Assembly (NCBI GenBank): GCA_038330175.1
Contig: JBBQNS010000005.1
Span: forward strand, 20 to 64,019
Direction: 5' to 3'
Length of the DNA stretch: 64,000 nucleotides
DNA from: Kiritimatiellia bacterium
GTDB lineage: Bacteria > Verrucomicrobiota > Kiritimatiellia > CAIKKV01 > CAITUY01
The translations under genes and the position numbers were made by a program. This document shows positions 15,549 through 62,686 of the stretch, one piece after another. A model generated the notes under the pieces. It saw only the letters and a list, made by a program, of their open reading frames with translations, had not been told where the DNA came from and did no database searches. The number at the start of each line of letters is the position of its first letter. Positions within the stretch are counted from its first letter, which is position 1.

Positions 15549-15625
15549 CACCCACCCCTAACCCCTCCAAGGAGGGGATCTCAATCGGGCTCCCCTCCTT
15601 GGAGGGGCAGGGGTGGGGTCTTGTG
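15549..15625. repeat. REP-like palindromic element, family A (CACCCCTAACCCCTCCAAGGAGGGG...CCCCTCCTTGGAGGGGCAGGGGTGG)
   Basis: ~75-bp near-perfect palindrome; second full copy at 58604-58674 and half copy at 47761-47790. Confidence 0.7.
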
Positions 15626-15885: not shown

Positions 15886-16668
15886 CTATAACGCATGAAT
15901 AAAATCCTTGAACTGCAAAATGCGGTCGCTGTTGCTCCGATTAAATAGCAAATGCTCAAAATCTTTTTTCTTTTTCGGGAGGTTGACGGATTCTAGTTTC
16001 GTGTTGATCGCTGCTTTCAGTACCCGCAGATTGCTGATTCCGCATTTTGTAGTGAGGAATCCATAATCTGGCTTTGCCTGTCCCAGTAGAAAAAGAGCAT
16101 CGTAAAAATCGCGCCCTTTCGCCCTGCTCAAAAGTGCGGAAAGCTTCATCGCGCACAGCACGGCGTCCGTCGGCACGGGGAAGGAGAAGACAAGACCGCA
16201 TCCCTTGATCAATGCCAGATCCTTGGCATACGCCATTCCCTGATCCTGCGCCTCAAGCTTGACCATGAACCGCTCGTCCTTGTGGCCTGACAAACCAAGC
16301 TCAAATAAAAGCTCGGGGAAAATGAGGCTCTTGCGGAAGGCTGTCAGTCGGCTGCTCTCCTGCGCCTTCAGAACGGCGTTGAAGCCGCTACGGACAAGAA
16401 AAGACGACACCTCCTGTGACATCTGATCAAAGTCTTCAGTGGAAAAATCTTTGCAGTCAAAATCCAAGTCCTCGGAAAATCGGTCAATACCCTTGACTAA
16501 CCGCAGGTTCGTTCCACCGATAAACACAAGGCGCCGGATATAAGAAGTCGTGGACAAGAAATCAAGAATCAGCAACTGAATATATTCCTTCAGGATATAC
16601 TTTTGAAAACGTGCATCACCCGAAAGGGCTTGCGGATAGAACGATGTGATTGCAGAGAGTGGCATCAT
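15886..16668 (-). CDS. abiEii: nucleotidyltransferase toxin, AbiEii/AbiGii family (type IV TA / abortive infection)
   Basis: 260-aa ORF with AbiEii-like N-terminal NTase region (RLVFIGGTNLRL...DLDFD); 4-bp overlap with upstream antitoxin gene. Confidence 0.7.
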   Translation of the reverse strand: MMPLSAITSFYPQALSGDARFQKYILKEYIQLLILDFLSTTSYIRRLVFIGGTNLRLVKGIDRFSEDLDFDCKDFSTEDFDQMSQEVSSFLVRSGFNAVLKAQESSRLTAFRKSLIFPELLFELGLSGHKDERFMVKLEAQDQGMAYAKDLALIKGCGLVFSFPVPTDAVLCAMKLSALLSRAKGRDFYDALFLLGQAKPDYGFLTTKCGISNLRVLKAAINTKLESVNLPKKKKDFEHLLFNRSNSDRILQFKDFIHAL

Positions 16669-17300
16669 AACCGATAGACCTTTTTCAGCAGACGAACCCT
16701 TTGTTCAAGGGCATGCGAGTTAAACTTTTCAAGAAACGCCTCCAGGCGGTCAAGGCGGAGGTCGCTATGCAGGAGCTCGTCGTCTAGTCGCAACTGTTCA
16801 ATCTCCGCCTCTGTATCATAGAAAGGATAGAGGTAAAGGAGATCCAGAACAGCCTTCTCGCGCGTTGCGAAAGAGAGCGAACGCCCGTCCATGACCTGGC
16901 GCGGCTCATACCCGAACATTAGCCCGGGCTTCACGCTCTTGTACGAGAAATCCCCAAAGGCGTTTGTGAAGCTCGCCGTCTTGAGCGACGTCACGCTCGT
17001 GATCTGCACGACGGCTTCAGGGATGAGCCCGTAAAACGACAGCGCGGTATGCAAGCTGATATAGGACGGACTGTACATCTTTCCTGCGAAATAAGAGGCT
17101 GCGTCTGGCACCGCCTTGTACTCCGGAAACGTGTAAACTCCCTGACGTAGCCGAATAAGATAGCCCTTCCGTGTCCAGCGAACCATATTGTTGCGGTCAA
17201 ACTCGGGCTGCCATGCATACACCTGATGGATGTTGAAGCAGGCAAGGTTAAACATCTTCGCTCTAAAGGTCGTCCAGTTCATAATATTTCTAAAACGCAT
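16665..17300 (-). CDS. abiEi: AbiEi-family antitoxin / transcriptional regulator
   Basis: 211-aa ORF immediately upstream of and overlapping abiEii; AbiEi-like N-terminal wHTH region; probable true start MNWTTF at 17282. Confidence 0.65.
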   Translation of the reverse strand: MRFRNIMNWTTFRAKMFNLACFNIHQVYAWQPEFDRNNMVRWTRKGYLIRLRQGVYTFPEYKAVPDAASYFAGKMYSPSYISLHTALSFYGLIPEAVVQITSVTSLKTASFTNAFGDFSYKSVKPGLMFGYEPRQVMDGRSLSFATREKAVLDLLYLYPFYDTEAEIEQLRLDDELLHSDLRLDRLEAFLEKFNSHALEQRVRLLKKVYRL

Positions 17301-17377: not shown

Positions 17378-17818
17378 TCACTGGGCCGACAAGGCGCTAT
17401 TCACGGCGGAAACCAAGGTGGCGGCATCCGTCACCCCGGAAAACTTCCTTAAAGGCTTTCCATTCTTGAAGATAATCAGTGCGGGAATGCTTTGGATGTT
17501 CAATTCACTCGCCACGTCACGGGCGGTCGCCACATTCAGCCTCGCCACGATCGCCTGAGTGTGGAGTTGATTCGCCACTGCCTCAACGATCGGTTCCTGG
17601 ATCTTGCAATCTCCGCACCAGGGAGCCCAGAAATCCACCAGAATCACTCCTTGCGCAATCTGCGAGTTGAACCCGGCGTCGTCCATAATCAGGACTCTTG
17701 AAGGCATAGCGTCATTTTCATCGGACACGATTTCCTTTTTTCCGCATCCTGTCAAAAGGGAGACGCAAAATAACACGATTACCCCCTTTGCAAAGGGTCG
17801 CTTGATGCCCTTATACAT
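17378..17818 (-). CDS. thioredoxin-family lipoprotein
   Basis: lipobox LLTGC; thioredoxin active-site variant WAPWCGDCK; start MYKGIKR at 17818 (longer ORF to 17938 lacks support). Confidence 0.75.
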   Translation of the reverse strand: MYKGIKRPFAKGVIVLFCVSLLTGCGKKEIVSDENDAMPSRVLIMDDAGFNSQIAQGVILVDFWAPWCGDCKIQEPIVEAVANQLHTQAIVARLNVATARDVASELNIQSIPALIIFKNGKPLRKFSGVTDAATLVSAVNSALSAQ

Positions 17819-18359
17819 GGGAAGCCTCCTGCGCAGGGTTGCGTAGCTGCGCCGCGAATGTATCGAACTCGGCGGCAATGTCATGGGAGAGAATCGTCGC
17901 AACCTTCGAGGCCGATATCTCCTTGCCTTGAACATCAACCCGAACCTGAAGCGACCGGTTGAGCGCCTCGATCTCTGATTGCATCCGGCGGATTTTCAAG
18001 TGCGTGGCAACACGCGCCTCAACCTCTTCAAACTGAAACGGCTTGGTCACATAGTCTACCCCGCCCGCTGAAAACGCTCTGACTTTGTCCGAAACCTCGA
18101 TATTGGCGCTGATAAAAATCACGGGGATTTCCGCGAGCAGAGGGTCCGCCTTAAGTTCCGCACACACCGCATAGCCGTCCATCTCCGGCATGTTGGTATC
18201 CAGCAGAATAAGATCCGGCAGTTCACAGCGAGCCGCAGCAAGGGCCGTCTTCCCATCCGCCACGGGGCGGACTCGATGTCCCCTTTTATTGAGCATCTCG
18301 GCGAGCAGGTGGAGGTTGGCAGGATTATCATCGACAATCATAATGTCCGCATTTATCAT
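17811..18359 (-). CDS. response-regulator receiver domain protein, truncated paralogue of REC-HD-GYP gene (no output domain)
   Basis: 182 aa; REC domain ~80% identical to 53091-54173 and 54170-55288 products; C-terminal tail aligns with REC/HD-GYP linker then stops; 3' end overlaps thioredoxin start by 8 bp. Confidence 0.8.
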   Translation of the reverse strand: MINADIMIVDDNPANLHLLAEMLNKRGHRVRPVADGKTALAAARCELPDLILLDTNMPEMDGYAVCAELKADPLLAEIPVIFISANIEVSDKVRAFSAGGVDYVTKPFQFEEVEARVATHLKIRRMQSEIEALNRSLQVRVDVQGKEISASKVATILSHDIAAEFDTFAAQLRNPAQEASHV

Positions 18360-18510
18360 GACTCATGATCGCTCATTCTAGGGCATCTGCCAATCGGGGG
18401 AAGGAGCATAAATGCCTGCGAAGTACCTTAGAAGCCTGCCGAACACAGGCTGTCCGGCAAGGTCATTTACCGGGTAAAACAGGAGTTTACCTTATAGTCG
18501 CTTGAGATTT
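18340..18510. repeat. duplicated junction segment (kinase 3' end - conserved leader - RR 5' end); second copy at 27200-27620
   Basis: near-identical blocks: CTGCCAATCGGGGGA(A/T)GGAGCATAAATGCCTGCGAA (18389-18420 vs 27293-27324), AGGAGTTTACC..ATAG.CG.TTGAG (18481-18506 vs 27591-27616), GGTGGAGGTTGGCAG (18309-18322 vs 27209-27223). Confidence 0.75.
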
Positions 18511-19733
18511 ATGATTTCGTTGATCAGTTTCAGCAGATGCCCTCCCGCCTGGAGAATCTGGCCGATACTTTCCTTCTGCTCAGGTGTCGGCGCCGGAGAA
18601 ACGGTCTCCAACAACTGAGCGAAACCAAGGATGGCATCGAGCGGGGAACGAAGCTCATGGCTTATTTTGGACAGAAAATCCGAGGTGGCCCGATTGGCGC
18701 TCTCCGCCTCTTCCTTGGCGTTTTCCAACTCGACATTCTTCTCTTGCAGTACCTGGTCCAGGCGTTTGGACTCCGTGATGTCACGCGCGGCGGCAAACAC
18801 ACCCTGTAATCTTCGATCCCGATCATAGAAGGTCGTCGCATTGTAGGACACCACGGTCTCCTTACCGTCCCTGTTTCGCGCGGTGAGTTCGTAATTGGTG
18901 AGTTTCCCTCCGGCCAGAACCTGCTTGATACTCGCCTCGGCGCGTTCCGGATCGGTAAAATAGTTCTTGAACGGCGCGCCGATCAACTCGTCACGCGTAC
19001 ATCCGGTAAGCGCCTCCATCTGCTTGTTGATATCGGTGATGATGCCCCTCGGATCGGTGGTCATAATCGCGTCAATATTGGATTCAAAAAGGGAGCGCGT
19101 ATAGAATTGCTGGTCGCGGAGACGCTGATCGAGCCTCATCTTCTCCTCTTCGACCAACTTGCGTGCGGCAAGAACGTGAGCGAGCTCCACGTTCTGACTG
19201 ACGGCATTCTCGTAGGTCGAGAGGAGCAGATCGAGGATATGGAGCCGGTCGGCGGTAACCAAGAACTGTTTTCCGGCGAAACAGATGTTGATTCCCATTT
19301 CGCTGGCGGGATCCTTGCGCATCTCCTGGTTTGCGATCACGTTCTGCACCCGCGCCAGAAGGGCATGGCCTTCGTAAGGCTTGCAGATGAAGTTGTTCGC
19401 CCCTGATTCGAGCCCGCGGATCACATCCTGCGGGTCGGAGAGCGAGGTGAGTAGAATCACCGGCAGGTGGCAAAACTGCGGGTCGGCGCGTAACGCCTTG
19501 CAGAGCGCATAGCCGTCCATCTCGGGCATTACGATGTCCGAAATGACCACATCGACTGCGCTCGCCTTGGCGGCCGCGAGCCCCTCCTTGCCGTTGGTCG
19601 CGGTGACGACCGAGTAGCCCGCCTCCTCGAGGAGAAACCGTAACTGCTCGCGTTGCGTTGGGCTGTCCTCGACGATCATGATCCTCACCGGTTGCGGTGT
19701 CGGGTTCGGGTTCGTATTCATGTGATTTTCCAT
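18492..19733 (-). CDS. REC-PAS-HisKA protein lacking HATPase_c domain (truncated kinase paralogue)
   Basis: 413 aa; N-terminal REC (VRIMIVEDS...D), PAS and H-box ISHELRSPL; residues ~200-413 are ~88% identical to residues ~475-690 of hybrid kinase 55285-58467; ORF stops (LKLINEIINLKRL*) exactly where paralogue continues into ATPase domain (LKLINEILDLAKIESGKL). Confidence 0.85.
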   Translation of the reverse strand: MENHMNTNPNPTPQPVRIMIVEDSPTQREQLRFLLEEAGYSVVTATNGKEGLAAAKASAVDVVISDIVMPEMDGYALCKALRADPQFCHLPVILLTSLSDPQDVIRGLESGANNFICKPYEGHALLARVQNVIANQEMRKDPASEMGINICFAGKQFLVTADRLHILDLLLSTYENAVSQNVELAHVLAARKLVEEEKMRLDQRLRDQQFYTRSLFESNIDAIMTTDPRGIITDINKQMEALTGCTRDELIGAPFKNYFTDPERAEASIKQVLAGGKLTNYELTARNRDGKETVVSYNATTFYDRDRRLQGVFAAARDITESKRLDQVLQEKNVELENAKEEAESANRATSDFLSKISHELRSPLDAILGFAQLLETVSPAPTPEQKESIGQILQAGGHLLKLINEIINLKRL

Positions 19734-19745
19734 ATCCTTTCGCTA

Positions 19746-20792
19746 CTAACGTTCATGCTGCACCGCAGCAATCAGAAGGTCGGTTATTTTCTGCGGCGGT
19801 AACACGAAACGGGCTGCACCCAGCCGGATCGCTTCGGCCGGCATGCCGAAAACCACGCAGCTTGCTTCGTCCTGGGCGACGGTGAGCGCACCCTGGTCGG
19901 CCAAGAGTTTGAGTTCCTCGGCGCCGTCCCGCCCCATGCCGGTCAGCAGCACACCGATTGCCCGGCGGCCAAACCGTTCTGCCACCGACCGGAACAAGAC
20001 TGCGACGGATGGCCGCAACCCGTATAGTGGCGCGTCCCAGGTCGCTTGCAGCTCGCCCGCCAGGCCGACCCGCAAGTGGTGGTCGTCGGGAGCAACGTAG
20101 ACGTGACCGGGAAGCGGCATCTCCCCACCACGCGCAACATGCACCGGCAAACTGGAGGCGGTGGCGAGCCATGCAGCAAAACCGCCTGTGAAACCCGGGG
20201 AAATGTGCTGGACGACAAGAATCGGAGCCGGGAAGGTGCACGGCAGGCCGGACAATATCTGAAAGATAACCGGCGGGCCACCCGTGGAGGCGCCGATGGC
20301 AACAACGGCGGTATCATGGCGAATGAAGTCGGGTAACAAGGGCGCGACAACAACCGGTGCCGCACCGGGGGTTCGATTCCAGCGCCGCACCACCTTGACC
20401 TCGGACATCAACTTGACCGTTTTAATCAACTCGGCGGTTTGAACTTCGGCAGCAGGATCGCCAAAACCCATGGGCTTCTTCAGCACGGCGAGAGCGCCGG
20501 CCTCCAGAGTGCGCATGGCCGTATGACTGTCGCCAAAACTCGGGCTACCCGTGCAGATGACGATGGGCACCGGATGGGTCGCCATGATCTGACGCGTCGC
20601 CTCGAAGCCGTCCATCTTCGGCATGTGGATGTCCATGAGGATGAGGTTGGGCTGGCACTGTTGCAGGTACGCCACAGCCTCCTCGCCGGTCGAAGCGGTG
20701 GCCATGACCCGTATATCTGGATCGCAGCTGAGGACATAAACCAAGTAATCCAACACCACGCGGGAATCCTCAACTATCAGCACGTCAATCAT
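19746..20792 (-). CDS. cheB: chemotaxis response regulator protein-glutamate methylesterase
   Basis: 348 aa; N-terminal REC, C-terminal CheB methylesterase (GASTGGP, catalytic region); 4-bp overlap with cheA. Confidence 0.9.
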   Translation of the reverse strand: MIDVLIVEDSRVVLDYLVYVLSCDPDIRVMATASTGEEAVAYLQQCQPNLILMDIHMPKMDGFEATRQIMATHPVPIVICTGSPSFGDSHTAMRTLEAGALAVLKKPMGFGDPAAEVQTAELIKTVKLMSEVKVVRRWNRTPGAAPVVVAPLLPDFIRHDTAVVAIGASTGGPPVIFQILSGLPCTFPAPILVVQHISPGFTGGFAAWLATASSLPVHVARGGEMPLPGHVYVAPDDHHLRVGLAGELQATWDAPLYGLRPSVAVLFRSVAERFGRRAIGVLLTGMGRDGAEELKLLADQGALTVAQDEASCVVFGMPAEAIRLGAARFVLPPQKITDLLIAAVQHER

Positions 20793-23014
20793 AGCAGCCT
20801 CCGGATGATTTCAATGAGGTTGCTCTGGTCAAAATCGCTTTTGACAATATAGGCGTTGGCTCCGACCTCGATGCCATATTCGCGGTCTTTCTGTGAGCCG
20901 AGCGCCGTTACCAGCAACACTGGCAACTCGCTAAGTTTTTTGTCGGCGCGGATCCTGGCGGTAAGCTCGAACCCGTTCAGGCGCGGCATGTCCACATCCG
21001 AGACCAGAAGGTCGAACGGCTCGGTCTTGAGTCTGGTCAGGGCGTCCATCCCATCCACGGTGGCCACCACCTCGTACCCGGCACCCTCGAGAATGGTCTT
21101 AACCAAGGTCCGGGCGGTGATGGAGTCCTCGGCGATCAGCAGCCGCCCTTTGCGTTTCTCCGCAGAACCATTTACCGAGCCCACCGGCCCCGGAACACCG
21201 GCCGTGGTGGCCGATTCCACCAGATCAAGGGCATCGAGGATGGGAATGACGGCGCCACTGCCCGTGATGGCGGCGGCGGCGACGTTGCGAACCTGCGCGA
21301 GTTGCCGACCGAGGCTTTTGACCATCACCTCCTGCTCTCCCAGCACGTCGTCAACGAGAAAGGCAACCTGTCGGTCTGCAGCGCGGATCACCACCACCGG
21401 ACGGGCCGCTCCGTTGGAACGTCCGTCCGGCCCGGAGAGCGCAAGAATGTCCCTTAGGCATACGAGCGACACGGCGACACCACCTAACGCGATGGTCTGG
21501 CGGCTCTCGACCGTCTTGATTTCGTCGGCTTTGACGCGCGCCACGCGAACCACGCTGGCGGTCGGAATGGCAAAACGTTTGCCCGCCACGGCCACAAACA
21601 CTCCACGGAAGGTCGCCAGCGACAACGGCACGAGAAGCCGAAATACCGTTCCGGCGCCGGGTGTCGAGGTTACCGAAACCGTACCACCGAGTTTCTCGAC
21701 CTTCTCGCGCACGATGGCCAGGCCCAATCCCCGACCGGAGAGATCAGTGATGATCGGGCTCGTAGAAAGGCCGGAGTTAAACACGAGTCCGGTTACCTCG
21801 GCATCGGTCAGGTGGACGGCTTCATCGGTCGAGACAAACCCGAGTCGAACGGCGGCCTTCCTGACCCTCGCGGACTCGATCCCGACACCGTCGTCACCTA
21901 CCGTGATCTCGACCCGGTTCCCGGGGACTGTCGTCACCGTGAACGTGACCACCCCGCGACTGGGCTTGCCATGCACCTGGCGTCCTTCCGGCTTTTCGAG
22001 GCCGTGATCGACCGCGTTGCGCAGCAGGTGGATGAGTGGATCCTTGAGTTCATCGAGGACACGCCGGTCGATCTCGATGTCTTCCCCGTGAATGATGAGG
22101 TCGGCCTCTTTGTTTTGCTCCCGCGCCAGATCGCGCACCAGCTTGGGAAAGGCAGAGAGAAGGTATGAGCAGGGAAGGAGCAACACCTTCTTCATATCCT
22201 CAAGAAGGCTGTCCGCGATGGCACCAAGCGCGCGGGCATCCTGATGCGCGGACCGGGCCAGGGTGCGGAGCGAGTTCTCGAGTGCCCTCGTGTAGAGCAA
22301 CTCGGACTCGATCAGTTCGCTTCCGGTGGGCGCGCCTTTCTGGATGCGGCGCTGCCTTGCGGCCAACCGAACGCGACCCTGGTTCCAGTGGCTGACACTG
22401 GCCGCGAGGTCGCGAATCTCGGTGGCGTGTCCACTCGCAGTAATCCTGGCGCCCACCAGTTCTTCGGCTTCGCGCAGAATGGCGCCGAGTTTCTGGGTGG
22501 AGACACGGACGGTCTCCAGCGTAGCCGCAGGCGTCGCCGCTTCACTGGCGACACGGAATTGAGGCACACTTGTTTCCGCCGGAGATTCCGGTTTCTTGGC
22601 TGGGGTGATCCGAACGATTCTACGGAGCGACTGAAGCGTCTGGTTTTCCTTCCCTTGGGCTTCCGGAGATGACGTTTCACCTGGCTTCGCACACAGCACT
22701 GCCAGCACATCGAGCGCAGGATGGATGACGTCGAGTAGCGTCGTGGATAGCGCGAGTTCTTCACGCTTCATGGCCGCAAAGATGCTCTCGAGTTCCATGC
22801 AGAACGCCTCCACGCCGGGGAGACTCACTGAGCGCGCCGCGCCCTTAAGCGAATGGGCCTCCCGGAAGATGCGCTCGACGATGGGCACGCGCTCTACGTC
22901 GCTGGCACGTTCGACAGCCACGAGCCCCGCAGCGATGGCCGCGATGTGTTCAGCCGCTTCGCCTTGGAAGATCTCACGCAATCGCGCCAGGAATTGTTCT
23001 TTCTTTAGGTCCAT
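20789..23014 (-). CDS. cheA: hybrid CheA histidine kinase with C-terminal receiver domain (WspE-like)
   Basis: 741 aa; N-terminal HPt (HSLKGAARS), HATPase_c, CheW-like domain, C-terminal REC (LLIAEDS...D). Confidence 0.9.
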   Translation of the reverse strand: MDLKKEQFLARLREIFQGEAAEHIAAIAAGLVAVERASDVERVPIVERIFREAHSLKGAARSVSLPGVEAFCMELESIFAAMKREELALSTTLLDVIHPALDVLAVLCAKPGETSSPEAQGKENQTLQSLRRIVRITPAKKPESPAETSVPQFRVASEAATPAATLETVRVSTQKLGAILREAEELVGARITASGHATEIRDLAASVSHWNQGRVRLAARQRRIQKGAPTGSELIESELLYTRALENSLRTLARSAHQDARALGAIADSLLEDMKKVLLLPCSYLLSAFPKLVRDLAREQNKEADLIIHGEDIEIDRRVLDELKDPLIHLLRNAVDHGLEKPEGRQVHGKPSRGVVTFTVTTVPGNRVEITVGDDGVGIESARVRKAAVRLGFVSTDEAVHLTDAEVTGLVFNSGLSTSPIITDLSGRGLGLAIVREKVEKLGGTVSVTSTPGAGTVFRLLVPLSLATFRGVFVAVAGKRFAIPTASVVRVARVKADEIKTVESRQTIALGGVAVSLVCLRDILALSGPDGRSNGAARPVVVIRAADRQVAFLVDDVLGEQEVMVKSLGRQLAQVRNVAAAAITGSGAVIPILDALDLVESATTAGVPGPVGSVNGSAEKRKGRLLIAEDSITARTLVKTILEGAGYEVVATVDGMDALTRLKTEPFDLLVSDVDMPRLNGFELTARIRADKKLSELPVLLVTALGSQKDREYGIEVGANAYIVKSDFDQSNLIEIIRRLL

Positions 23015-23039
23015 GTGACTCTCCGGTGCGCTCCGTGCG

Positions 23040-24656
23040 TCACCCCTCCACCTTCTGCCGCTCGACTAACACCTTCAGCTTCCCGCCTAGCTCTTTGAGG
23101 TTCCGCGCCGACGTTTCGAGTTGCTGGGTTCCTGCCATATTCTGGGTGGTCGCTTGCCGGATGTTGGCTATGGCCGAGGCGATCTGATCCATGCCGACGA
23201 GTTGCTGCTGACTGGACGCGGCGATCTGGATGGCGGCCTGCGCGGCCTCGCCGACGCTGCCCGTGAGCACGCGGATCGACTCGCCCGCTTCGGTGGCCTG
23301 TTTAACCCCGGCCGCCACCGCCTTGGTCCCTTGTTCGGTGGCCATGACTGCGGCGCTGGTGGCCTTCTGCACCTCCATCAGGATGGTGCGTACTTGGGTT
23401 GTAGCCTGCCGCGATTGCTCAGCCAGACTCTTGACTTCCTGCGCCACCACTGCGAAACCCTTGCCAAACTCGCCCGCGCGGGTCGCCTCAATGGCCGCGT
23501 TGACCGCCAGCAGGTTCGACTGCTCGGCGAGGTCGTTGACCGTCGCGATGATCTCGCCGATGGTCTGGCCCTGCTCACTCAGCCGCACGACGCTTTCGGC
23601 GATTTCCTCCATCTGCTCACGAATGAGGTTCATGCCTTCGAGCGTCTCGGTAACGGCTTTGCGGCCGGTTTCGGACACAGCCGCGACCTTCTGAGCACTC
23701 TCCTGAACATTCTTTGCCTTCTGGTTGGACAAATGGGCGGTCTGCTTCACCTCTTCGGCGGTGGTACTGGTCTCGCTAACGGCGGTGGCAGTCTCGGCCG
23801 CACCTGCGGCAACTTGGGAAACGGTAGCGAGAATCTCCGCCGAGGACGAGGCGAGAACACCGGCTCCTTGGCGAAGTTCAAGATTCATATCGCGCAGGTT
23901 CTCGATCATGATCCGCAGCGCCCGCTGCAGCGCGCCGACTTCGTCCGACCGGTCGTCGGATTCAACCCGAACGGTCAGGTCGCCTGCGGCGACCCGCTCA
24001 GCCACACCGGTGATCGCGCCGATAGGCTTTGCAATGGAGCGCGTCAGTACCACCCCCCCACCCACCAATGTTACGATCGAAAGCAAGGTTCCCAGCACGA
24101 TGAGCAGTTTCAAATACTTCACACTGGATGCGGACTCGTTTTGGCGCTTGTCCAGGAGCTTCTGCTCGTCGACCTGCATCTGACTGACCGCAGCACGGAT
24201 CTCGCCCATAACGCTCTTTCCCCTGCCGGAACGAATGATCTCCAAAGCGGCCTGGAGGTCTTTTGTTCGCCTGATCTCGATCCCCTCGTCGAGAATCTTG
24301 AACCTGGCTGCCACCAACGGCTCGATGGAATTAAGGCGATTTTGCTGCACAGGGTTGTCGGCGGTCAAGTCCCTGACGCTGACAAAGGATTTTCTGAAAT
24401 CCTCCTTCCCCTTGAGATACGGCTCGAGATACAAGTCGTCACCGGTGATGATGAATCCACGGTTACCTGTCTCGGCGTTCAGGAGATCGATAATGACACC
24501 GTCGAGCGCGTGGATCACCGCGTGCGTACGCATCCCCCAATTATTATCTTCGGTATTGGTTTGAAACCCCTTGTACGTGCAGACAGCCACAATGGCGAAT
24601 GTCACAACGGCGACCGCAAGTGCGGTAACGATCTTGGTTCCGATTTTCCAGCGCAT
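23040..24656 (-). CDS. methyl-accepting chemotaxis protein (two TM, periplasmic sensor, HAMP)
   Basis: 538 aa; TM1 near N-terminus, TM2 ~res 185-205, HAMP then MCP signalling domain with conserved hairpin region ([38 protein letters not shown]). Confidence 0.9.
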
Positions 24657-24684
24657 GAGCCTTCTCCTTTTTGATTTTATCCGT

Positions 24685-25290
24685 TCACTGAGTTACCTGT
24701 TTGTTGCCCTTGAGGCCGGTGTCGTTGAGCAAGCGACCCCCGTCGAGTATGGCCAGCCTCTGGCCGGTGATACCCTTAAGAAACTTTTCGCGAATTCCGG
24801 TGAGCGTGGGCAATCCCACCTGCAACGTCGCCGCCGTCACTGAACGCACGCCTTCAATGGAGTCCGCGAGCAGACCCAGTTCGTCTTCGCCACGGCTGAG
24901 AACAATAACCCGGTTGAGTTCGGTGAGGCCTCTGACCGGCAGTTCGAAAAACTGGCGTAGGTCGACAATCGCCAGGATCTGGCCGTGTAGGTTCATGACA
25001 CCGGCGATAAAGGGCGGGGTGCAGGGCACGGCCGTAAGGTCTCGTAGCTGGCAGACTTCGCGGACATACCGGCTCTCGACGCCGTAGGTTTCGTCGGCCA
25101 GCGAAAAGGCCAGGATATCCAAACGCGCGGTGTCGTCCGGCTTCGACGGCGGCTTGGCCGCCGCTCGCGCCCGGGCCTCGAGAATGCGTTTCGCTGCCTC
25201 CGGACCGCAGCCGATGTTCCCCGCCATCGCGCTCGTGGCGGACGCCAATCGGCGATGGATGGCGTCCCAGTCTATGACGCGTGGCTGCAT
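24685..25290 (-). CDS. cheW: CheW-like coupling protein
   Basis: 201 aa with CheW domain; within che operon. Confidence 0.75.
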
Positions 25291-26699
25291 TATTGTACTC
25301 CTATGTAATCACTCATTGCGCGGACAGACTCTAAGAGCCGGCCACAGGTCATGCCGTCGGATTCGGGCAGAACCTCGTTCTGGCTCCGGGCCGCGAGGAG
25401 TTGAAGGGCAACGGCGAGGTGGCGCTTGGATTCTTTTTGTTTGCCGAGCCGATGGTAGAGCGCGCCCAACGCATGGTGGGCAAGGATAAAGTCCTGGTCG
25501 AGGTAGAGGACTTTGCCGAATGCTTCAACGGCGTCCTGAAGCCGACCGAGTTCGTGGAAGATTGTCGCGCGCAGGAAGTGGGCGGCGGGTTTGGTAGGCT
25601 CGGCCTTGGCGGCCCGCTCACACCACGTGAGCGCCTCGTCGAGTCTGCCCTGATTGGCGCAGAGGCGTGCCAGCACCAGAGGGTCTTCACGGGTTGACCC
25701 GGTGCCTGGCATGATCAGCGCGATGGGCGGAGTCGGCGTGATCGGCACAACCGGCACAGGCATCGCTGGCGCGACGAAATCGGCGGGCGCGGGCTCCGGG
25801 AAAGCGGGTGCGGGGGAGGCAAGTCCCGGCCAGGATTCGCCTCGGCTCGGTCGTGTTCCCTTGCGGCAGACAATGACGCCATCGATATTCTCCACGGCAA
25901 ACATCGGGAACAGAGAAGCACTGGCTTCGGCGGGATTGACAATCAGACAGCCACCGTCAACGAGAGAACGGTGCAGCGCCGCCACGACTCGCCGCTGGTG
26001 GTCGGGAGTGAAGTACATGATGACGTTTCGGCAGAAGATCACGTCCATGGCATTGGTATGGTTGTGGAGCGACGGGTAAGCGTCTTCGGCCAGGTTGAGG
26101 AAGGTGAAGTGGATTAGCTTTTTGAGGCCCGGCTCGATCATGTACTTCTTGTCCGGTGCGGGAGAGAAGAACCTGTCGCGCAGTCCTGCTTCGGTGCCTC
26201 GGAACGACCATTCGGAGTAGACGCCCGCCTCGGCCTTGGCGAGGAACTTGGGATTGATGTCAGTTGCCAGGATCGAAACGTTCCAATCGCGCAGGTTGGG
26301 AATGATGCGCGTACAGCTCATCGCGAGTGAGTACGCCTCCTCTCCGGTGCAGCACCCGGCGCTCCACAAACGCAGGGTCCGGCCCATGTCGGTGCGTTTC
26401 GCCACGAGCGGGGGCAGGATCTCCCGCTCAAGCAGCTCGAAGCTCTCCGGGTTCCGGAAGAAGTAGGTCTCGCCGATGGTCAGGTGACTGGCGAGCGTCT
26501 CAATTTGCCGGACGGTGAGTTCTCGGGTCGTGAGCCAGCGTGCGCAGTCGTCGAAAGACTCGAAGCCGAGTTCCGGGCCGGCCGTCTTGATGCCGCACGC
26601 CAAGTCGGGCCAGCGCTCTTCGGGGAAATGCAAGCCCATCCGCTCGGCGATGAAGCCGCTCACCTTGCTGAGGACCGCTCTTTCGCTTACGGGTGGCAT
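25290..26699 (-). CDS. cheR: chemotaxis protein methyltransferase CheR with C-terminal TPR repeats (WspC-like)
   Basis: 469 aa; CheR SAM-binding motifs (LRLWSAGCCTGEEAYSLAM), Pro-rich linker, C-terminal TPR. Confidence 0.88.
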   Translation of the reverse strand: MPPVSERAVLSKVSGFIAERMGLHFPEERWPDLACGIKTAGPELGFESFDDCARWLTTRELTVRQIETLASHLTIGETYFFRNPESFELLEREILPPLVAKRTDMGRTLRLWSAGCCTGEEAYSLAMSCTRIIPNLRDWNVSILATDINPKFLAKAEAGVYSEWSFRGTEAGLRDRFFSPAPDKKYMIEPGLKKLIHFTFLNLAEDAYPSLHNHTNAMDVIFCRNVIMYFTPDHQRRVVAALHRSLVDGGCLIVNPAEASASLFPMFAVENIDGVIVCRKGTRPSRGESWPGLASPAPAFPEPAPADFVAPAMPVPVVPITPTPPIALIMPGTGSTREDPLVLARLCANQGRLDEALTWCERAAKAEPTKPAAHFLRATIFHELGRLQDAVEAFGKVLYLDQDFILAHHALGALYHRLGKQKESKRHLAVALQLLAARSQNEVLPESDGMTCGRLLESVRAMSDYIGVQ

Positions 26700-26702
26700 G
26701 GG

Positions 26703-27170
26703 TCAGCCGACTCCTTTCTCGGGTTCGCCGGCAGGGGAGCTCAAGGCGCGATCAATCGCCGTCTCCTCTTCGACGGAGAGCAGGCGATTGAGGTCGTGGA
26801 TCAGAACAAGTCCATCTTCGAGCTTGATCGCACCGGCAACGAACTCAAGCCGTGGCAGGATCTCACCCGCAGGAATGGTGTTCTCGTCCGTGGTCTCGAC
26901 CACCCCTTTCGTTTCATCAACCAACAGAGAGACGGTTCGCTTCCCGGTCGTGGCAACCATAAGATGATCGGACAAACGAATATCACGCGGCGGGTGGTTG
27001 AACCGTCCCCGCAGGTTGATGACGGGAATGACCTCGCCGCCGAGATCGATGATGCCCATGACGAGCGGGGGCGCCTTGGGAAGCGGCGTAATGGCAACGA
27101 CCCGAATGACGCGCCGCACGCAGGCGAGATCCAGCGCGTAACGCTGGTCGTCCAGAGAGAAGACCGCCAT
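26703..27170 (-). CDS. cheW: CheW-like coupling protein (first gene of che operon)
   Basis: CheW domain begins MAVFSLDDQRYALDL; the longer ORF to 27206 (MAEMISMKTKRHM...) is encoded by a remnant of a response-regulator 5' end. Confidence 0.75.
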   Translation of the reverse strand: MAVFSLDDQRYALDLACVRRVIRVVAITPLPKAPPLVMGIIDLGGEVIPVINLRGRFNHPPRDIRLSDHLMVATTGKRTVSLLVDETKGVVETTDENTIPAGEILPRLEFVAGAIKLEDGLVLIHDLNRLLSVEEETAIDRALSSPAGEPEKGVG

Positions 27171-27199
27171 ATGTCGTTTTGTTTTCATTGAGATCATCT

Positions 27200-27620
27200 C
27201 GGCCAACAGGTGGAGGTTGGCAGTGCAGGGTTATCAGTAATTATCAGGATATCCGCATCTATTCTTGTTTAGTCTTCCTCTTTCCAGAGCCTCTGCCAAT
27301 CGGGGGATGGAGCATAAATGCCTGCGAATTTCCTTAGTCCCTTACGACCTGAATCAATCGAATTATGGTCATGATTTGGGCAAGAAGAGAATTTGAACAG
27401 CCTCCTTCGCCAGTAGGTTACGGCGAGCCGAGGAAGCTCAGTAGAGTAGAGAAGGGGAAATAATTGCGCCTGCGGTGTACTCGCCGCTGGCGCCTTTGCG
27501 TGCTTCGTGTGCTTCTGTTAAATTTCTTCTTCTTAGTTCCGGCTACGCTGGATTAGGAATGCCGCGTAAGGTTATTCGACGTTGAAAATAGGAGTTTACC
27601 CCATAGCCGTTTGAGTTCCT
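27200..27620. repeat. second copy of kinase-3'/leader/RR-5' junction, interrupted by a partial family-B MITE (27440-27525)
   Basis: see 18340-18510; RR start remnant DNPA-LPTSTCWPR (frameshifted) at 27207-27262; kinase C-terminus remnant ...LKRLW with stop codon mutated (TAA->TGG). Confidence 0.7.
27440..27525. repeat. partial, inverted copy of MITE-like repeat family B
   Basis: reverse complement (GAAGCACGCAAAGGCGCCAGCGGCGAGTACACCGCAGGCGCAATTATTT) matches 51711-51770 almost exactly; one terminus only, with 7-bp internal duplication. Confidence 0.6.
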
Positions 27621-29087: not shown

Positions 29088-31130
29088 TCAAGGCAGAATA
29101 CGCACTTTTGCTTCACGATCCCACTGGCGCGTCTTGGCCGCGGCGATAAAGCCACGCGTATCCTCAACATCGACGACGCCACCATCGGATTCGACGCCGG
29201 CGGCACTCAGCAGCATCCGACCACCGTTATCGACGGCCATGGCCTTTAAGTGCGCAAAAGCATCGCTGACAAAATCCAGCGCCGCGCTTTCGCCTGTCAG
29301 TAGCGTGGCCGTTTCGTCCGACAAAACAACCGCTACCGCGTCAAACAACAGGGAAGGCAATCCGGAGATGATACCATCCGCAGCCAGCTTGGAGCCGTCG
29401 CTGAGTGTCGCACCGCCAACCTTGGGAGCCACGATCTTGAAAGCCGCGCCAGCGCCTTTAATCGCTTTTTGAATTTTTTTAATAGCCACCGCATCGGAGC
29501 CGTCACCAATGAGGATCGCCAACGTACGCCCTTCCAAAGTATCCTTCATCTTTCCAATTAATTGCAAAGCGGGCGACAGCTCCATATTGGTCACAGGTGC
29601 CGCTGTCTGAGGTGCCTCTGGCAAAGTTTCCATGCCTAATTGATTAGCCACGCGCTGCGCCAGATCCGCATCGATATGCCGCAGGTGTCCGACCATCGCC
29701 TCACGAACGTGCGGGTGATCGCACTTGGAGAACTCAAACACCATTGCCGCAGCGATATGCGTCTGTTCGTGCGGAGTTTGGCTGCGATAAAACTGACGAG
29801 CTTGGCTATAGTGATCGGCAAAACTTTCTGGCCGTGGGCGCCCCTTCGTTCCGCTCTCCGGGACAGTTGCACTGCGAAAACCACCTTTACCCACCTCACG
29901 TGGCGAAACAGCCGACAGCGAATTAGGTTCATAGGCGACTCGCCCCGTCTGTGGGGACATCTGCATATGGCCGTCGCGTTGATGGCTGCTAAACGGACAC
30001 TTGGGGGCGTTGATGGGAAGCTGGTGGAAATTTGGCGACCCCAGCCGCGACAATTGGGTATCCAGATATGAGAACAGACGCCCTTGCAATAGCGGGTCAT
30101 TTGAAAAATCAATCCCTGGAATAATATTGCCTGGGCAGAAGGCCACTTGTTCCGTGTCGGCAAAGAAGTTCTCCGGCCAGCGATTCAGCACCATCCGGCC
30201 TATTACCTTGAGGGGGACCAGTTCTTCAGGAATAAGCTTCGTCGGATCCAGATGGTCGATGGGGAACGCTTCGGCTTCTTTTTCGGTAAATAACTGTACT
30301 GCCAGCTCCCACTCAGGAAAATTCCCGGTCTTAATCGCCTCAAACATATCACGACGGTGGTAATCCGGATCGGCTCCCGATATTTTTACGGTCTCGTCCC
30401 AGATGGTAGACTGCAAGCCCAACTTGGGCCGCCAGTGGAACTTAACAAAGGTCGCATCACCGTCGGCGTTGATCAGTCGAAAGCTATGAATACCAAAGCC
30501 TTCAACCATCCGCAGCGATCGGGGCAGGGTCCGATCCGACATAATCCACATGACCATATGCATGGATTCGGGCGTCAGCGAGATATAGTCCCAGAAGGTA
30601 TCGTGGGCGGTAGCGGATTGGGGGAACGCCCGATCGGGCTCCATCTTGACGGCATGGACTAGGTCAGGGAATTTCATCGCATCCTGAATAAAGAACACCG
30701 GGATATTGTTGCCGACTAAATCCCAGTTGCCTTCTTTCGTGTAAAATTTAATGGCAAACCCACGGACATCCCGTGGCGTATCAATTGAACCAGCCCCGCC
30801 GGCGACGGTCGATATCCGTATAAAAATGGGCGTTTCTTCACCCACTTCAGTCAGAATTTTTGCGGTGGTATATCTTTTCAGCGAACTAGTGAGTTCAAAA
30901 AAACCATGTGCCCCTGTGCCGCGGGCGTGGACGACGCGTTCTGGAATGCGCTCATGGTCAAAGTGCATAATCTTTTCGCGCATAATGAAATCTTCGAGTA
31001 AGGCCGACCCGCGAGGATGGGCTTTGAGTGTGTTTTGGTCGTCAGCCAATTGCACGCCTTGATTGGTGGTCATCGGCGGGTGCTTGCCACCAGCGACTTG
31101 GTGGGTTTCACCCGTCGCAGACAAGGGCAT
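29088..31130 (-). CDS. katE: large-subunit (HPII-type) catalase, paralogue 1
   Basis: 680 aa; catalase core ([15 protein letters not shown], heme-binding region) plus C-terminal flavodoxin/DJ-1-like domain; ~80% identical to 41665-43821 product. Confidence 0.93.
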   Translation of the reverse strand: MPLSATGETHQVAGGKHPPMTTNQGVQLADDQNTLKAHPRGSALLEDFIMREKIMHFDHERIPERVVHARGTGAHGFFELTSSLKRYTTAKILTEVGEETPIFIRISTVAGGAGSIDTPRDVRGFAIKFYTKEGNWDLVGNNIPVFFIQDAMKFPDLVHAVKMEPDRAFPQSATAHDTFWDYISLTPESMHMVMWIMSDRTLPRSLRMVEGFGIHSFRLINADGDATFVKFHWRPKLGLQSTIWDETVKISGADPDYHRRDMFEAIKTGNFPEWELAVQLFTEKEAEAFPIDHLDPTKLIPEELVPLKVIGRMVLNRWPENFFADTEQVAFCPGNIIPGIDFSNDPLLQGRLFSYLDTQLSRLGSPNFHQLPINAPKCPFSSHQRDGHMQMSPQTGRVAYEPNSLSAVSPREVGKGGFRSATVPESGTKGRPRPESFADHYSQARQFYRSQTPHEQTHIAAAMVFEFSKCDHPHVREAMVGHLRHIDADLAQRVANQLGMETLPEAPQTAAPVTNMELSPALQLIGKMKDTLEGRTLAILIGDGSDAVAIKKIQKAIKGAGAAFKIVAPKVGGATLSDGSKLAADGIISGLPSLLFDAVAVVLSDETATLLTGESAALDFVSDAFAHLKAMAVDNGGRMLLSAAGVESDGGVVDVEDTRGFIAAAKTRQWDREAKVRILP

Positions 31131-41664: not shown

Positions 41665-43821
41665 TTAGGCGAGTGTTCGTACGGACTTCTCGCGATCCCA
41701 TTGCCGCGTCGTTGCAGCAGCGATAAATGCGACTTTGTTATTGGCATCTATGACGCCCGCGTCCTGTTCAACATTTGCTATTTTCAAAAGCGCGTGGCCG
41801 CCTTTGTCGACGGCGATTGCCTTAAGATGGCCGAAGGCATCGCGCACGAAATCGATTGCGGCGCTTTCCACCGATAGGGCCTTGGCACCCTCTTCAGAGA
41901 GAATAACGGCCACTGCGTCGAACAGGACCGAAGGCGTTCCCGCCAATTGTCCATCCGCCGGCAGCATCGAGCCATCGGCGAGTTTCGCGCCGCCGACCTT
42001 GGGCGCGACGATCTTCACGGCCGCCCCCGCGTCGGTCGCAGCCTTCTTGATCTTCTTGATGACCGTGCCATCTGAACCATCTGCGATTAGGATGGCGATG
42101 GCGCGCCCCTCAAGGGTGTTCTTCATTTTGCCGATGATCTGCAATGCAGGTGATGGCGCCATTTTCTTCACAGGCGCAGCGGCCGCCGGGGCATCGGGCA
42201 TCTTGTCGAACGTAAGGCCCGCCGCAACCCGCTTCGCCAAGTCCTCCTCTATGTGTCGCAGGTGTCCCACCATCGCCTCACGCACGTGGATGTGCTCAAC
42301 CTTGGAAAGCTCAAACACCAACGCCGAGGCGATGTGCGCCTGCTCATACGCAGTTTGGCTGAGATAAAACTGCCGCGCCTGACTGTAGTGGTCGGCGAAG
42401 CTGTCGGCACGGATGCGGCCCTTCTCGCCGGTGTCCACTACGGAAGCGCTATGGAAACTCTTCACCGGCGTTTCGCGCGGTGAGTTGCCGGATAAGGAGT
42501 TAGGCTCATAGGCAACACGGCCCGTCGGCTGTCCCATCTGCATGTGTCCGTCACGTTGCTGGTTACCGAACGGGCACTTGGGTGCGTTGATCGGGATCTG
42601 ATGGAAGTTGGCTGAACCCAGGCGCGACAACTGCGTGTCGAGGTAGGAGAACAATCGACCCTGTAATAGTGGATCATTTGAGAAATCGATGCCTGGCACC
42701 ACGTTGGCAGGGCAAAAGGCAACCTGTTCGGTTTCGGCGAAGAAATTGGCCGGCCAGCGATCCAGCACCATGCGGCCGATCACTTTTAATGGCACCAACT
42801 CTTCGGGAATCAGCTTGGTAGCGTCCAGATGATCGAAGGGGAATCTGTCGGCCTCCTCCTGCGTGAAGAGCTGAACCGCGAATTCCCACTCGGGAAATTT
42901 GCCCGCCGCGATGGACTCGAACATGTCGCGGCGGTGGTAGTCCGGGTCCGCGCCGGCAATCTTGACGGTCTCATCCCAGATGGTGGACTGCAAGCCGAGC
43001 TTGGGACGCCAATGAAATTTGACGAAAGTGGACTTACCTGCCGCATTGATCAGCCGAAAACTATGCACGCCAAAGCCTTCGATCATCCGCAACGAACGCG
43101 GCAGTGTGCGATCAGACATGATCCACATCACCATGTGCATAGCTTCAGGCGTAAGCGAAATGAAATCCCAGAACGTGGAGTGCGCGGTTGCCGATTGCGG
43201 AAAACCGCGGTCGGGTTCCATCTTGACGGCATGGATGAGGTCGGGAAACTTGATGGCATCCTGGATGAAGAATACCGGGATGTTGTTGCCGACCAGGTCC
43301 CAGTTGCCTTCCTTGGTGTAGAACTTGATGGCAAAACCGCGTACGTCACGAGGGGTATCCACCGAACCGGCGCCGCCTGCGACGGTCGATATGCGAGTAA
43401 ACACGGGGGTCTTCTCACCGACCTCGGTGAGTATCCTGGCGGTAGTGTATTGTTGCAACGAGGAAGTCAGCTCGAAGAAGCCATGCACGCCTGTCGCGCG
43501 CGCATGGACAATACGCTCCGGAATGCGTTCGTGATCGAAATGGGTGATCTTTTCGCGAAGGACGAAGTCCTCCAAGAGGGTCGGGCCGCGCGTATTGGCC
43601 CGTAGCGAGTTTTGATTGTCGGAAACGGGGAGGCCTTGATTGGTTGTCAGCACAGGGTGATCCGCGCCGGCGACCTGGTGCCGTTCCCCTCCACTTCCCA
43701 AGTGGCCTTCTTCGAGCGCAGCGGCAAAACCAACTTTCTTCTTATTGGTCTCTGTGCTGTTGCGGGCTTTTTTTTTCGTTTTCATGATACTACTTCCCTC
43801 CTGAAGTCGATCATCTCTCAT
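41665..43821 (-). CDS. katE: large-subunit (HPII-type) catalase, paralogue 2
   Basis: 718 aa; K-rich N-terminal extension; ~80% identical to katE paralogue 1. Confidence 0.93.
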
Positions 43822-51665: not shown

Positions 51666-51683
51666 AATGGCTCAATCCGGCAT

Positions 51684-51843
51684 AGCCGAAACCAAAACGA
51701 AGATTTTTGAACAGAAGCACGCAAAGGCCCCAGCGGCGAGTACGCCGTAGCCGTAATTATTTTTGGAATTCAAACACCTGGCATTTTTGCCGAAGGCGTA
51801 AACACTCCATCCTTAGCGGCCTTCGCGTGCTTCTGTTCAAAAC
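51684..51843. repeat. MITE-like repeat family B, full copy (terminal inverted repeats TTTTGAACAGAAGCACGCAAAGG / CCTTCGCGTGCTTCTGTTCAAAA)
   Basis: TIRs at 51705-51727 and 51819-51841; additional copies at 62435-62573 and partial at 27440-27525; all in 5' leaders of minus-strand genes. Confidence 0.65.
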
Positions 51844-51876
51844 TCTTTTCTTGTCCTAATCATGAACATATTTCGA

Positions 51877-58467: not shown

Positions 58468-58603
58468 CTGGTCTTGTCCGCCTATCAGGGCAAAGCTGAT
58501 AAAGCCCAGCGAAATACCTTACGGGCGCTACTGCGAGAGGGAATCCAGAATTCAGAATCCAGGAGTCAGAATATTGGATTTTACTGTCATGCGGTAAACA
58601 AGA

Positions 58604-58674
58604 ACCCACCCCTAACCCCTCCAGGGAGGGGATCTTCATCTGGCTCCCCTCCCTGGAGGGGTTAGGGGTGGGTG
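58604..58674. repeat. REP-like palindromic element family A, full copy
   Basis: ACCCACCCCTAACCCCTCCAGGGAGGGGATCTTCATCTGGCTCCCCTCCCTGGAGGGGTTAGGGGTGGGTG. Confidence 0.7.
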
Positions 58675-62573: not shown

Positions 62574-62686
62574 TTGCGTTTATTCGCGCAGTGGGATTAG
62601 TTAACCGTAAGCAAACGGCAACCGGAAATGAAACCCACCAAAAGCACGCCCAAAATGATGCGATAGATATTCATATTAGTTCTCCC

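Follow-up and report, generated by a model that had tools for sequence, protein, structure and literature searches.

A chemosensory operon with two short terminal genes

The 64-kb contig JBBQNS010000005.1 belongs to a Kiritimatiellia bacterium, an uncultured organism whose genome was assembled from metagenomic data; the whole analysed stretch of 64,000 nucleotides is called the window here. It carries a chemosensory operon whose two terminal genes encode short signalling proteins of 413 and 182 amino acids (aa). Gene and domain calls were based on a listing of open reading frames (ORFs) and on Pfam scans. On the minus strand, the following genes succeed one another: (i) cheW; (ii) cheR with C-terminal tetratricopeptide repeats (TPR); (iii) a second cheW; (iv) a gene for a methyl-accepting chemotaxis protein (MCP) with a CHASE3 domain; (v) a cheA gene fused to a receiver (REC) domain; (vi) cheB; (vii) the 413-aa ORF; and (viii) the 182-aa ORF (Table 1). 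The six che genes are full-length when compared with all their orthologues. In NCBIfam they give generic CheA, CheB, CheW and CheR matches and no more specific name.

A second signalling locus, at 53-62 kb, encodes a hybrid kinase of 1060 aa, a REC-kinase of 372 aa and a REC-HD-GYP protein of 360 aa. An earlier note, made from the sequence alone, had described the order of the che genes, a REC-PAS-HisKA gene that ends without an ATPase domain, and a REC gene truncated from a paralogue of the 360-aa gene. All its coordinates and domain calls hold, and both terminal genes and the second locus answer to their description, as detailed below.

The che operon (19000-27200) is a compositional island: its GC content is 0.60-0.62 and its GC content at third codon positions (GC3) 0.71-0.79 (0.71-0.76 for the che genes), versus 0.50-0.57 and 0.58-0.68 in the flanks. 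The CarB protein of the contig is 76-83% identical to those of named Kiritimatiellia, and the chromosome is that of a member of the Kiritimatiellota. Around carB no synteny was found in relatives' contigs at 89-94% CarB identity, carB alone being shared. Both the GC island and the absent synteny would fit an origin of the 15-28 kb region by horizontal transfer.

Table 1. Features of the chemosensory operon, its leader repeats and the second signalling locus (window positions)
Feature	Position	Strand	Evidence and remarks
Leader copy A, left part	27562..27615	-	Homologous to 18454-18506
MITE-like element of ~210 nt inside leader copy A	27350..27554	.	Absent from copy B
Leader copy A, right part: 45-nt core and decayed ~22-codon REC remnant, abutting cheW1	27183..27337	-	
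cheW (first; cheW1)	26703..27188 (ORF listing 27206-26703)	-	Pfam CheW 1.3e-29; orthologues 56-74% identical
cheR with C-terminal TPR	25290..26699	-	Pfam CheR 1e-48; TPR_1/2/11 at aa 341-419
cheW (second)	24685..25290	-	Pfam CheW 6e-27
Chemoreceptor, CHASE3-HAMP-MCPsignal	23040..24656	-	Pfam
cheA-REC hybrid kinase, Hpt-HATPase-CheW-REC	20789..23014	-	Pfam; relatives 59-71% identical, full length, in metagenome-assembled genomes of many phyla
cheB, REC-methylesterase	19746..20792	-	Pfam; NCBIfam PRK12555 342.9 bits (cut-off 342)
413-aa ORF	19733-18492	-	Pfam REC 18-130, PAS 213-324, HisKA 351-413
413-aa protein, residues 1-189: cheB-adjacent REC and ~55-aa extension	19167..19733	-	E22-D23, D66; relatives 65-73% identical
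413-aa protein, residues 190-410: PAS and DHp (HisKA, H359), no CA	18507..19166	-	Host-like composition
Leader copy B: C-terminal K-R-L and stop of the 413-aa ORF, then spacer with core 18431-18387	18360..18506	-	
182-aa protein: REC, coiled-coil linker and 18 unrelated residues	17811..18359	-	Pfam REC 6-117; D10-D11, D54, S84, K106
REC-HD-GYP, 360 aa	53091..54173	-	Pfam REC and HD_5; HD212, HHE272, GYP280
REC-HisKA-HATPase, 372 aa	54170..55288	-	Pfam
PASx4-HisKA-HATPase-REC hybrid kinase, 1060 aa	55285..58467	-	Pfam
Third, weaker 45-nt core copy	58477..58521	-	Lies 10 nt before the start of the 1060-aa kinase gene

The 413-aa protein

Histidine kinases of the HisKA type join a dimerisation and histidine phosphotransfer (DHp) domain to a catalytic and ATP-binding (CA) domain. 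In the 413-aa protein, the HisKA match spans profile positions 3 to 63 of 66 and the ORF stops there, at the DHp/CA boundary. Pfam finds no HATPase_c domain, and the end of the ORF leaves no room for a cryptic ATPase.

The protein is a chimera of (i) its own REC and extension module (aa 1-189) and (ii) a host-type PAS-DHp module; homology and composition both switch at aa ~189. Residues 1-189 are che-like in composition (GC 0.594; GC3 0.79) and as conserved as CheA and CheB, and their homology to orthologues always stops at aa ~184-189. Residues 190-413 resemble the host background and the 53-58 kb locus (GC 0.541; GC3 0.67), and they match aa 454-677 of the 1060-aa kinase with 83% identity (BLASTP, E 1e-129); at the DNA level, 18514-19153 matches 56456-57095 at 80%. 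The earlier view of the whole gene as a paralogue of the 53-58 kb locus is therefore right for the C-terminal 224 aa, but residues 1-189 are an orthologous, cheB-adjacent module.

From which gene the PAS-HisKA segment came is a separate matter. The module is conserved at ~80% across phyla, and the copy in the 413-aa protein is 79-83% identical to hybrid kinases of many of them. Its closest relative in the genome is the DHp domain of the 1060-aa kinase. Both are sisters in a neighbour-joining tree but share only three rare states, with a bootstrap of only 0.39 for the nearest-neighbour relationship. The segment could descend from the 1060-aa kinase or from another gene, since that kinase has more in common with the foreign protein P0041 (88%) than with the 413-aa protein (83%).

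A WspR-like receiver was considered for the REC module and rejected: WspR is not among its top structural-sequence matches, and the PDB matches are generic only (3gt7, PleD, CheY).

As an observation in its own right, CA-less derivatives of the same PAS-HisKA module occur in other proteins, from Polyangiales and others (P0014, P0020-P0022, P0023, P0026, P0037, P0093). In some of them the phospho-accepting histidine has become N or D, and the same W-to-G change is found as in the 413-aa protein. The CA domain has therefore been lost from this module repeatedly.

The 182-aa protein

Residues 2-164 of the 182-aa protein are 74% identical, over 163 aa, to residues 1-163 of the 360-aa REC-HD-GYP protein (BLASTP, E 9e-82). 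The corresponding DNA (17893-18357 versus 53710-54174) matches at 74%, and homology to the HD-GYP gene ends at 17893. The linker of the 182-aa protein is an HD-GYP-specific coiled coil that extends precisely as far as the expected start of the catalytic domain. The HD-GYP domain itself, with its HD, HHE and GYP motifs, is absent from the protein, and the ORF ends without room for a cryptic one. A separate family of short REC and coiled-coil proteins was ruled out: the nearest database relatives are all REC-HD-GYP proteins or fragments thereof, the short matches being such fragments.

Among themselves, the RECs of the 182-, 360- and 372-aa proteins are 74-83% identical, versus 43-57% to relatives, and they make up a group specific to this genome. 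Within it, the 372-aa REC is 83% identical to the 360-aa REC and 75% to the 182-aa REC. Compared with the che-linked HD-GYP proteins of relatives, the 182-aa protein is 43-49% identical and the 360-aa protein 49-57%. The stop codon of the 182-aa gene overlaps the start of the adjoining gene (ATGTATAA, ATG 17816), which codes for a thioredoxin of lipoprotein type (17378-17816; lipobox LLTGC).

A direct repeat marks the rearrangement junctions

A direct repeat of ~230 nt brackets the operon: the stretch 18506-18284 recurs as 27615-27562 and 27337-27183. Its content is the spacer between the two terminal genes and the first ~70 nt of the 182-aa gene. For the left part, the alignment score is 49 versus 19+-3.3 in 500 shuffles (maximum 33; z about 9), and the exact 16-mer GGTAAACTCCTRTTTT has its sole occurrences in the window at 27585-27600 and 18476-18491. 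The right part of copy A is 81.6% identical to 18284-18431, with 9 gap columns.

Between both parts of copy A lies an element resembling a miniature inverted-repeat transposable element (MITE), 77-85% identical, in inverted orientation, to 51674-51884. The latter has internal inverted repeats of 93% identity (51700-51729 versus 51847-51818). A further, partial copy (62435-62575) sits upstream of a gene for a CheB-CheR-kinase fusion.

The REC remnant of copy A (ADILIITDNPA..ANLHLLAEMI) contains insertions of 5 nt and 2 nt and runs in frame into cheW1. The real start of cheW1 is probably ATG 27188 or 27170, since the TTG start of the ORF listing (27206) lies inside the remnant. At the other end, kinase homology extends through ...LINEIINL to ~18507 and leader homology begins at 18506. 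What ends the 413-aa ORF at the DHp/CA boundary is thus a breakpoint; the last three codons (K-R-L) and the stop of this ORF derive from leader copy B. Four junctions can be read at the locus.

A 45-nt core of the repeat, TAAGGTAyTTCGC.GG..TTTAT...CCC.GAT.GGC.GA, precedes cheW1 (27293-27337), the 182-aa gene (18387-18431) and the 1060-aa kinase gene (58477-58521). The third copy is the best non-self match in the window (score 42 versus 17.3+-2.8 in shuffled sequences, 0/1000 as high). No Rfam family matches the leader or any other part of the window. Inspection by eye showed no -24/-12 spacing of the sigma-54 kind in the leader. The one sigma-70-like site, before the 182-aa gene (TTGGCA-17-GATCAT, 18393-18365), is weak. 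The core could be a shared operator or an element of the 5' untranslated region that co-regulates the three units. Separately, a G+C-rich palindromic 70-nt element, like repetitive extragenic palindromes, is found in two copies, 86% identical, at 15550-15619 and 58604-58673.

These junctions bear on whether the truncations are real. In a contig of 64 kb from an uncultured organism, with paralogous signalling genes side by side, assembly or binning might have joined paralogous loci into a chimeric contig. Nevertheless, the paralogues match at only 74-80% in DNA and the flanking repeats are ~82% identical, and copies so diverged would not mislead an assembler. Moreover, the junctions show diverged copies elsewhere, a MITE insertion and in-frame fusions, all of which speak for a real evolutionary history. 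An artefact of this kind is very improbable.

Relatives and the ancestral output

A scan of species-representative genomes with CheA-REC retrieved 254 relatives, the best of which (59-71% identical) come from Spirochaetota, Deltaproteobacteria, Holophagales, Aminicenantes, Gemmatimonadota, Myxococcota and others. In the loci of the relatives the six che genes are colinear with those of the window. In them the gene 3' of cheB always starts with a REC and a ~55-aa extension, which match residues 1-184 of the 413-aa protein at 65-73% identity. It goes on with GAF/PAS domains that vary, then HisKA and HATPase and, at the C-terminus, another REC; its product totals 690-1290 aa. ATPase domains in relatives were called by Pfam, BLAST being too insensitive.

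Of 16 close loci, 11 have a full REC-HD-GYP gene, its product 49-55% identical to the 360-aa protein, beside the che operon. This gene lies directly downstream in L004, L009, L012, L013, L019, L021, L037 and L084, is convergent in L010, and precedes cheW in L003 and L002. The presence of a full kinase and an adjacent full REC-HD-GYP in relatives points to an ancestral output by kinase relay to the hydrolysis of cyclic di-GMP (c-di-GMP). The ancestral pathway was therefore two-tiered, from CheA-REC to a REC-hybrid kinase and from there to REC-HD-GYP. The earlier note had proposed hydrolysis rather than synthesis as the output and had asked for a full REC-HD-GYP next to cheB in relatives. The latter exists, and the former stands as the ancestral condition once an intermediate kinase tier is added. 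Relatives carry full-length genes, and short genes are not the conserved ancestral state.

In one of the closest relatives by CheA (L003, a delta-proteobacterial metagenome-assembled genome; 71%), genes for a hybrid kinase, a REC-kinase and a REC-HD-GYP protein lie immediately upstream of cheW in the same orientation (L003:232-5448). The REC-kinase is 50% identical to the 372-aa protein and the REC-HD-GYP protein 52% to that of the window. The two loci of the window may derive from one ancestral super-operon.

The REC and extension module is widespread. A metagenome scan with residues 1-200 returned more than 500 further copies. Among the fetched loci, 134 of 162 contain the module, 111 of them with a complete 3' end, and cheB is directly upstream in 97 of these 111. 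Its C-terminal partners are (i) a kinase; (ii) PAS-GGDEF or GGDEF; (iii) PAS only; (iv) a Cys-rich domain; or (v) none. The GGDEF partner is WspR-like in L072, L129 and L130. Complete kinase-less REC-extension-PAS genes occupy the same operon position in L010 and L027, from which it follows that such outputs are viable, and a stand-alone REC-extension gene follows cheB in L036.

The extension itself (motif G.x.xF.GK..F.TAD...L.LL.STYE.AV..N.EL; window 19167-19340) is conserved across numerous bacterial phyla and in Methanoperedens archaea, in over 130 loci altogether; examples among L001-L160 are L019:13294-13860 and L036:4405-5007. No Pfam model exists for it, and PDB 3gt7 covers only its first ~25 residues.

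These findings allow the possibility to be weighed that the short forms are native and were never longer, that is, that the 413-aa protein is a REC-PAS-DHp adaptor and the 182-aa protein a stand-alone CheY-like REC, with a likeness to the second locus due to common domain ancestry. The kinase-less and stand-alone genes of L010, L027 and L036, as well as the recurrent CA-less derivatives in Polyangiales, agree with it. However, the 413-aa ORF ends inside a rearrangement junction with leader-derived codons, the 182-aa protein keeps the linker of an HD-GYP protein up to the expected start of the catalytic domain, and its closest relatives are all REC-HD-GYP proteins. Besides, a decayed duplicate of the 5' end of the 182-aa gene precedes cheW1. 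The junction analysis largely refutes this explanation, which is left as improbable.

The same truncated pair of genes was not seen in any relative. An exact-sequence look-up for a sister genome with the same locus matched only the contig itself, and neither the genome nor the metagenome scans returned a relative closer than 73%.

Class of the system and comparison with known pathways

Clusters of the alternative cellular functions (ACF) class (Wuichet & Zhulin classification; survey PMC3447774) combine in one place an MCP, two CheW, a CheR-TPR, CheA, CheB and a multidomain regulator. In the window, (i) MCP, CheA, CheW, CheR and CheB are encoded in one cluster of six consecutive genes (27206-19746); (ii) CheR is fused to TPR, a criterion taken from the survey (PMC3447774); and (iii) a multidomain response regulator (REC-PAS-HisKA) directly follows cheB. 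By every feature tested, the locus fits the ACF class. In CheR-TPR clusters, REC-kinase (HisKA-HATPase) outputs make up ~40%, and others have GGDEF or a "metal-dependent phosphatase" (HD) (PMC3447774). The relatives of the window operon display this published spectrum on one conserved REC and extension module. The window differs in that its regulator has lost the ATPase and the C-terminal REC, and its HD-GYP enzyme the catalytic domain, by a traceable rearrangement.

The earlier note had spoken of a Wsp/ACF-class architecture. The ACF part of this description is sound, but the operon is not Wsp proper. Likeness to the Pseudomonas Wsp system (WspA-F, WspR) consists in two CheW-like proteins, CheR-TPR, CheA-REC, CheB and a c-di-GMP enzyme as ultimate output. 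Nevertheless, the Wsp order is MCP-CheW-CheR-CheW-CheA-CheB-output, with the MCP gene first, whereas in the window it comes fourth; the receptor is of the CHASE3 type in the window and of the 4HB type in Wsp; and the ancestral output is HD-GYP hydrolysis via an intermediate hybrid kinase, not direct phosphorylation of the enzyme. Pfam detects no GGDEF domain (WspR-type) in either terminal ORF.

The Che3 pathway of Rhodospirillum centenum shares a CheA-REC hybrid, a REC-PAS-histidine-kinase output and a REC protein as final acceptor (PMC3868531). There, CheA3 phosphorylates a receiver of the REC-PAS-kinase CheS3 and so controls the kinase output of CheS3 (PMC3868531). CheS3 has a working ATPase and phosphorylates CheY3, whereas the PAS-DHp part of the 413-aa protein (H359), being without an ATPase, cannot autophosphorylate. 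The HisKA and HATPase core of Che3-type outputs is thus missing from the 413-aa protein and present in its relatives, and the 182-aa REC is a single-domain protein only through truncation. By analogy, the system would work most like the Che3 type, yet it is not a member, the ATPase being absent.

Proteins in which a DHp-type module acts without an ATPase of its own offer further parallels. Spo0B and ChpT are DHp-fold phosphotransferases that shuttle phosphate between receivers and keep a degenerate CA-like domain, while the 413-aa protein ends at the DHp; this analogy concerns mechanism only, and the ATPase partner acting in trans is hypothetical. Likewise, in CheA3/CheA4 of Rhodobacter sphaeroides a His-bearing dimerisation module without its own ATPase is phosphorylated in trans (PMC6829392).

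Proposed history and probable retention of the short genes

The best explanation of the whole is that an ACF operon was acquired, that its output was remodelled by rearrangement and that the short proteins have been retained. We give it a probability of roughly one half.

In the order of events that we infer, the starting point would be a horizontally acquired, intact ACF-class operon (cheW, cheR-TPR, cheW, CHASE3-MCP, cheA-REC, cheB), with a REC-HD-GYP gene before cheW, as in L003. A tandem duplication would then have copied the unit from the leader to kinase codon 410; this is the simplest history because the kinase breakpoint coincides with the left end of the repeat. Two deletions could have followed: (i) one in copy 1 that removed everything between REC codon ~23 and the start of cheW1; and (ii) one in copy 2 that began in the HD-GYP linker (aa 164, position 17893), took in the second che copy and ended ~80 nt before the thioredoxin gene. 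The outcome would be a kinase gene cut at codon 410 and joined to a leader copy, and an HD-GYP gene cut after its coiled-coil linker.

As to age, the PAS-HisKA pair (413-aa protein versus 1060-aa kinase) has a synonymous divergence (dS) of 1.36 and a ratio of replacement to synonymous rates (omega) of 0.074; for the REC pair (182- versus 360-aa protein), dS is 1.25 and omega 0.147. Both pairs are thus old paralogues and not recent copies. The leader repeat is only ~18% diverged and, in view of these dS values, the rearrangement is younger than the duplication of the paralogues.

The decayed copy A served as a neutral yardstick over the 63 nt that it shares with the live REC 5' end, with the two intact paralogues as outgroups. 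Since the split, the changes in the live sequence have been 3 synonymous and 1 conservative, with indels absent, versus 3 replacement changes and 2 frameshifting indels in the dead copy. Six changes are common to both and hence predate the split. Under neutral decay at this rate, an ORF of 413 codons would stay open with a probability of 0.0001-0.04 and one of 182 codons with 0.02-0.28; for both jointly the value is below ~1%. The phospho-residues are kept in both proteins (D66 and H359 in the 413-aa protein; D54 and K106 in the 182-aa protein). Because both ORFs are intact while the repeat copy decayed, the short proteins are probably retained phospho-acceptor or relay proteins and not dead relics. 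Judging from these comparisons, we hold with moderate confidence that both are still made and selected.

A number of points weigh against this reading: (i) on the 182-aa branch there are 26 changes versus 6 on the 360-aa branch (chi-square 12.5), a ~4-fold acceleration, the corresponding counts for the PAS-HisKA pair being 12 versus 9; (ii) the linker of the 182-aa protein has an omega of 0.38; (iii) six lineage-specific changes in the DHp of the 413-aa protein (K350T, M357I, N366D, W398G, L408I, D409N) fall on positions that are 93-100% conserved in the family (five at >=99%, one at 93%); (iv) the 182-aa gene has a weak ribosome-binding site; (v) the neutral clock comprises 63 nt and presupposes the same age for the HD-GYP deletion and the repeat; (vi) no sister genome with the locus was found, and selection on the truncated genes is gauged only indirectly; (vii) the window comes from a metagenome-assembled contig; and (viii) the above order of events is one of several histories, template switching and Campbell-type integration being possible alternatives. 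The acceleration of the 182-aa protein and the DHp changes also fit relaxed constraint.

Several of these points would be expected if the short genes were dead relics whose ORFs are open for lack of time, the che core signalling via other response regulators or being itself in decay. The accelerated REC, its linker, the weak start-site context, the unrelated 18-residue tail and the absence of the truncated pair from relatives all agree with this, as does the clustering of the six DHp changes around H359 and the former DHp/CA interface. However, the ORFs of 413 and 182 codons are uninterrupted, whereas the REC remnant of the same age gained two frameshifts in 63 nt, so that their joint neutral survival is below the percentage given. 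Every phospho-transfer residue is kept, the N-terminal module is conserved to the degree of CheA and CheB, and the che genes are all full-length. Furthermore, 4 of the 5 amino-acid changes of the REC182 branch in the first 22 codons are older than the rearrangement. Decay to relics is possible and deserves to be taken seriously, without being probable. Retention under altered constraint, rather than pure decay, is favoured for the short genes, but only moderately.

What the short proteins may do

If the short proteins are retained, CheA-REC would phosphorylate D66 on the REC and extension module of the 413-aa protein. Its PAS-DHp part might act as (i) a phosphatase; (ii) a His-phosphotransfer node; or (iii) a protein that pairs with its paralogue, the 1060-aa kinase. 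As a receiver of one domain (D54, S84, K106), the 182-aa protein would accept phosphate or serve as a sink for it, in competition with the near-identical RECs of the 360- and 372-aa proteins. Hydrolysis of c-di-GMP would be left to the intact 360-aa paralogue alone.

In a bolder proposal, the 413-aa protein would be an ATPase-less kinase stump that wires the chemosensory array into a separate two-component relay and so controls c-di-GMP hydrolysis at a distance. CheA would phosphorylate the REC and extension module, and the PAS-DHp part would either heterodimerise with the 1060-aa kinase and be phosphorylated by it in trans, like the split CheA3/CheA4, or shuttle phosphate among, or strip it from, the 372-, 360- and 182-aa receivers, with the 45-nt core co-regulating the three units. 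The proposal is speculative and, as it stands, unlikely.

Other features of the window

In the gene for the 1060-aa kinase, three tandem repeats of 426 nt (142 aa), 74-81% identical (57084-58235), code for the N-terminal PAS domains and indicate a recent internal amplification. Directly upstream of this gene, a fusion of 1208 aa (CheB-CheR-PAS-HisKA_3-HATPase; 58732-62358) heads the 53-62 kb cluster. Next to the lipoprotein thioredoxin gene lies a toxin-antitoxin pair of the AbiEi/AbiEii type (15886-17300). Finally, two paralogous large-subunit catalases are encoded 12.6 kb apart, at 29088-31130 (680 aa) and 41665-43821 (718 aa), with a DNA identity of 73-76%.

Significance

ACF chemosensory pathways are widespread and few have been worked out. 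We know of no studied example of the class that ends in a hybrid kinase and an HD-GYP phosphodiesterase. The locus is a variant of the known ACF kind of system and not something new in kind. The comparison defines a conserved, cheB-adjacent REC and extension module with interchangeable outputs in many phyla, Methanoperedens archaea included. In addition, the window offers a rare case in which one can follow, base by base, the rearrangement that reshaped a signalling output. If the short genes are relics, they would represent ordinary operon decay. If the truncated proteins are functional, they would provide a natural instance of a kinase that has shrunk to a stump with phosphotransfer or phosphatase activity and links a chemosensory array to a paralogous relay.

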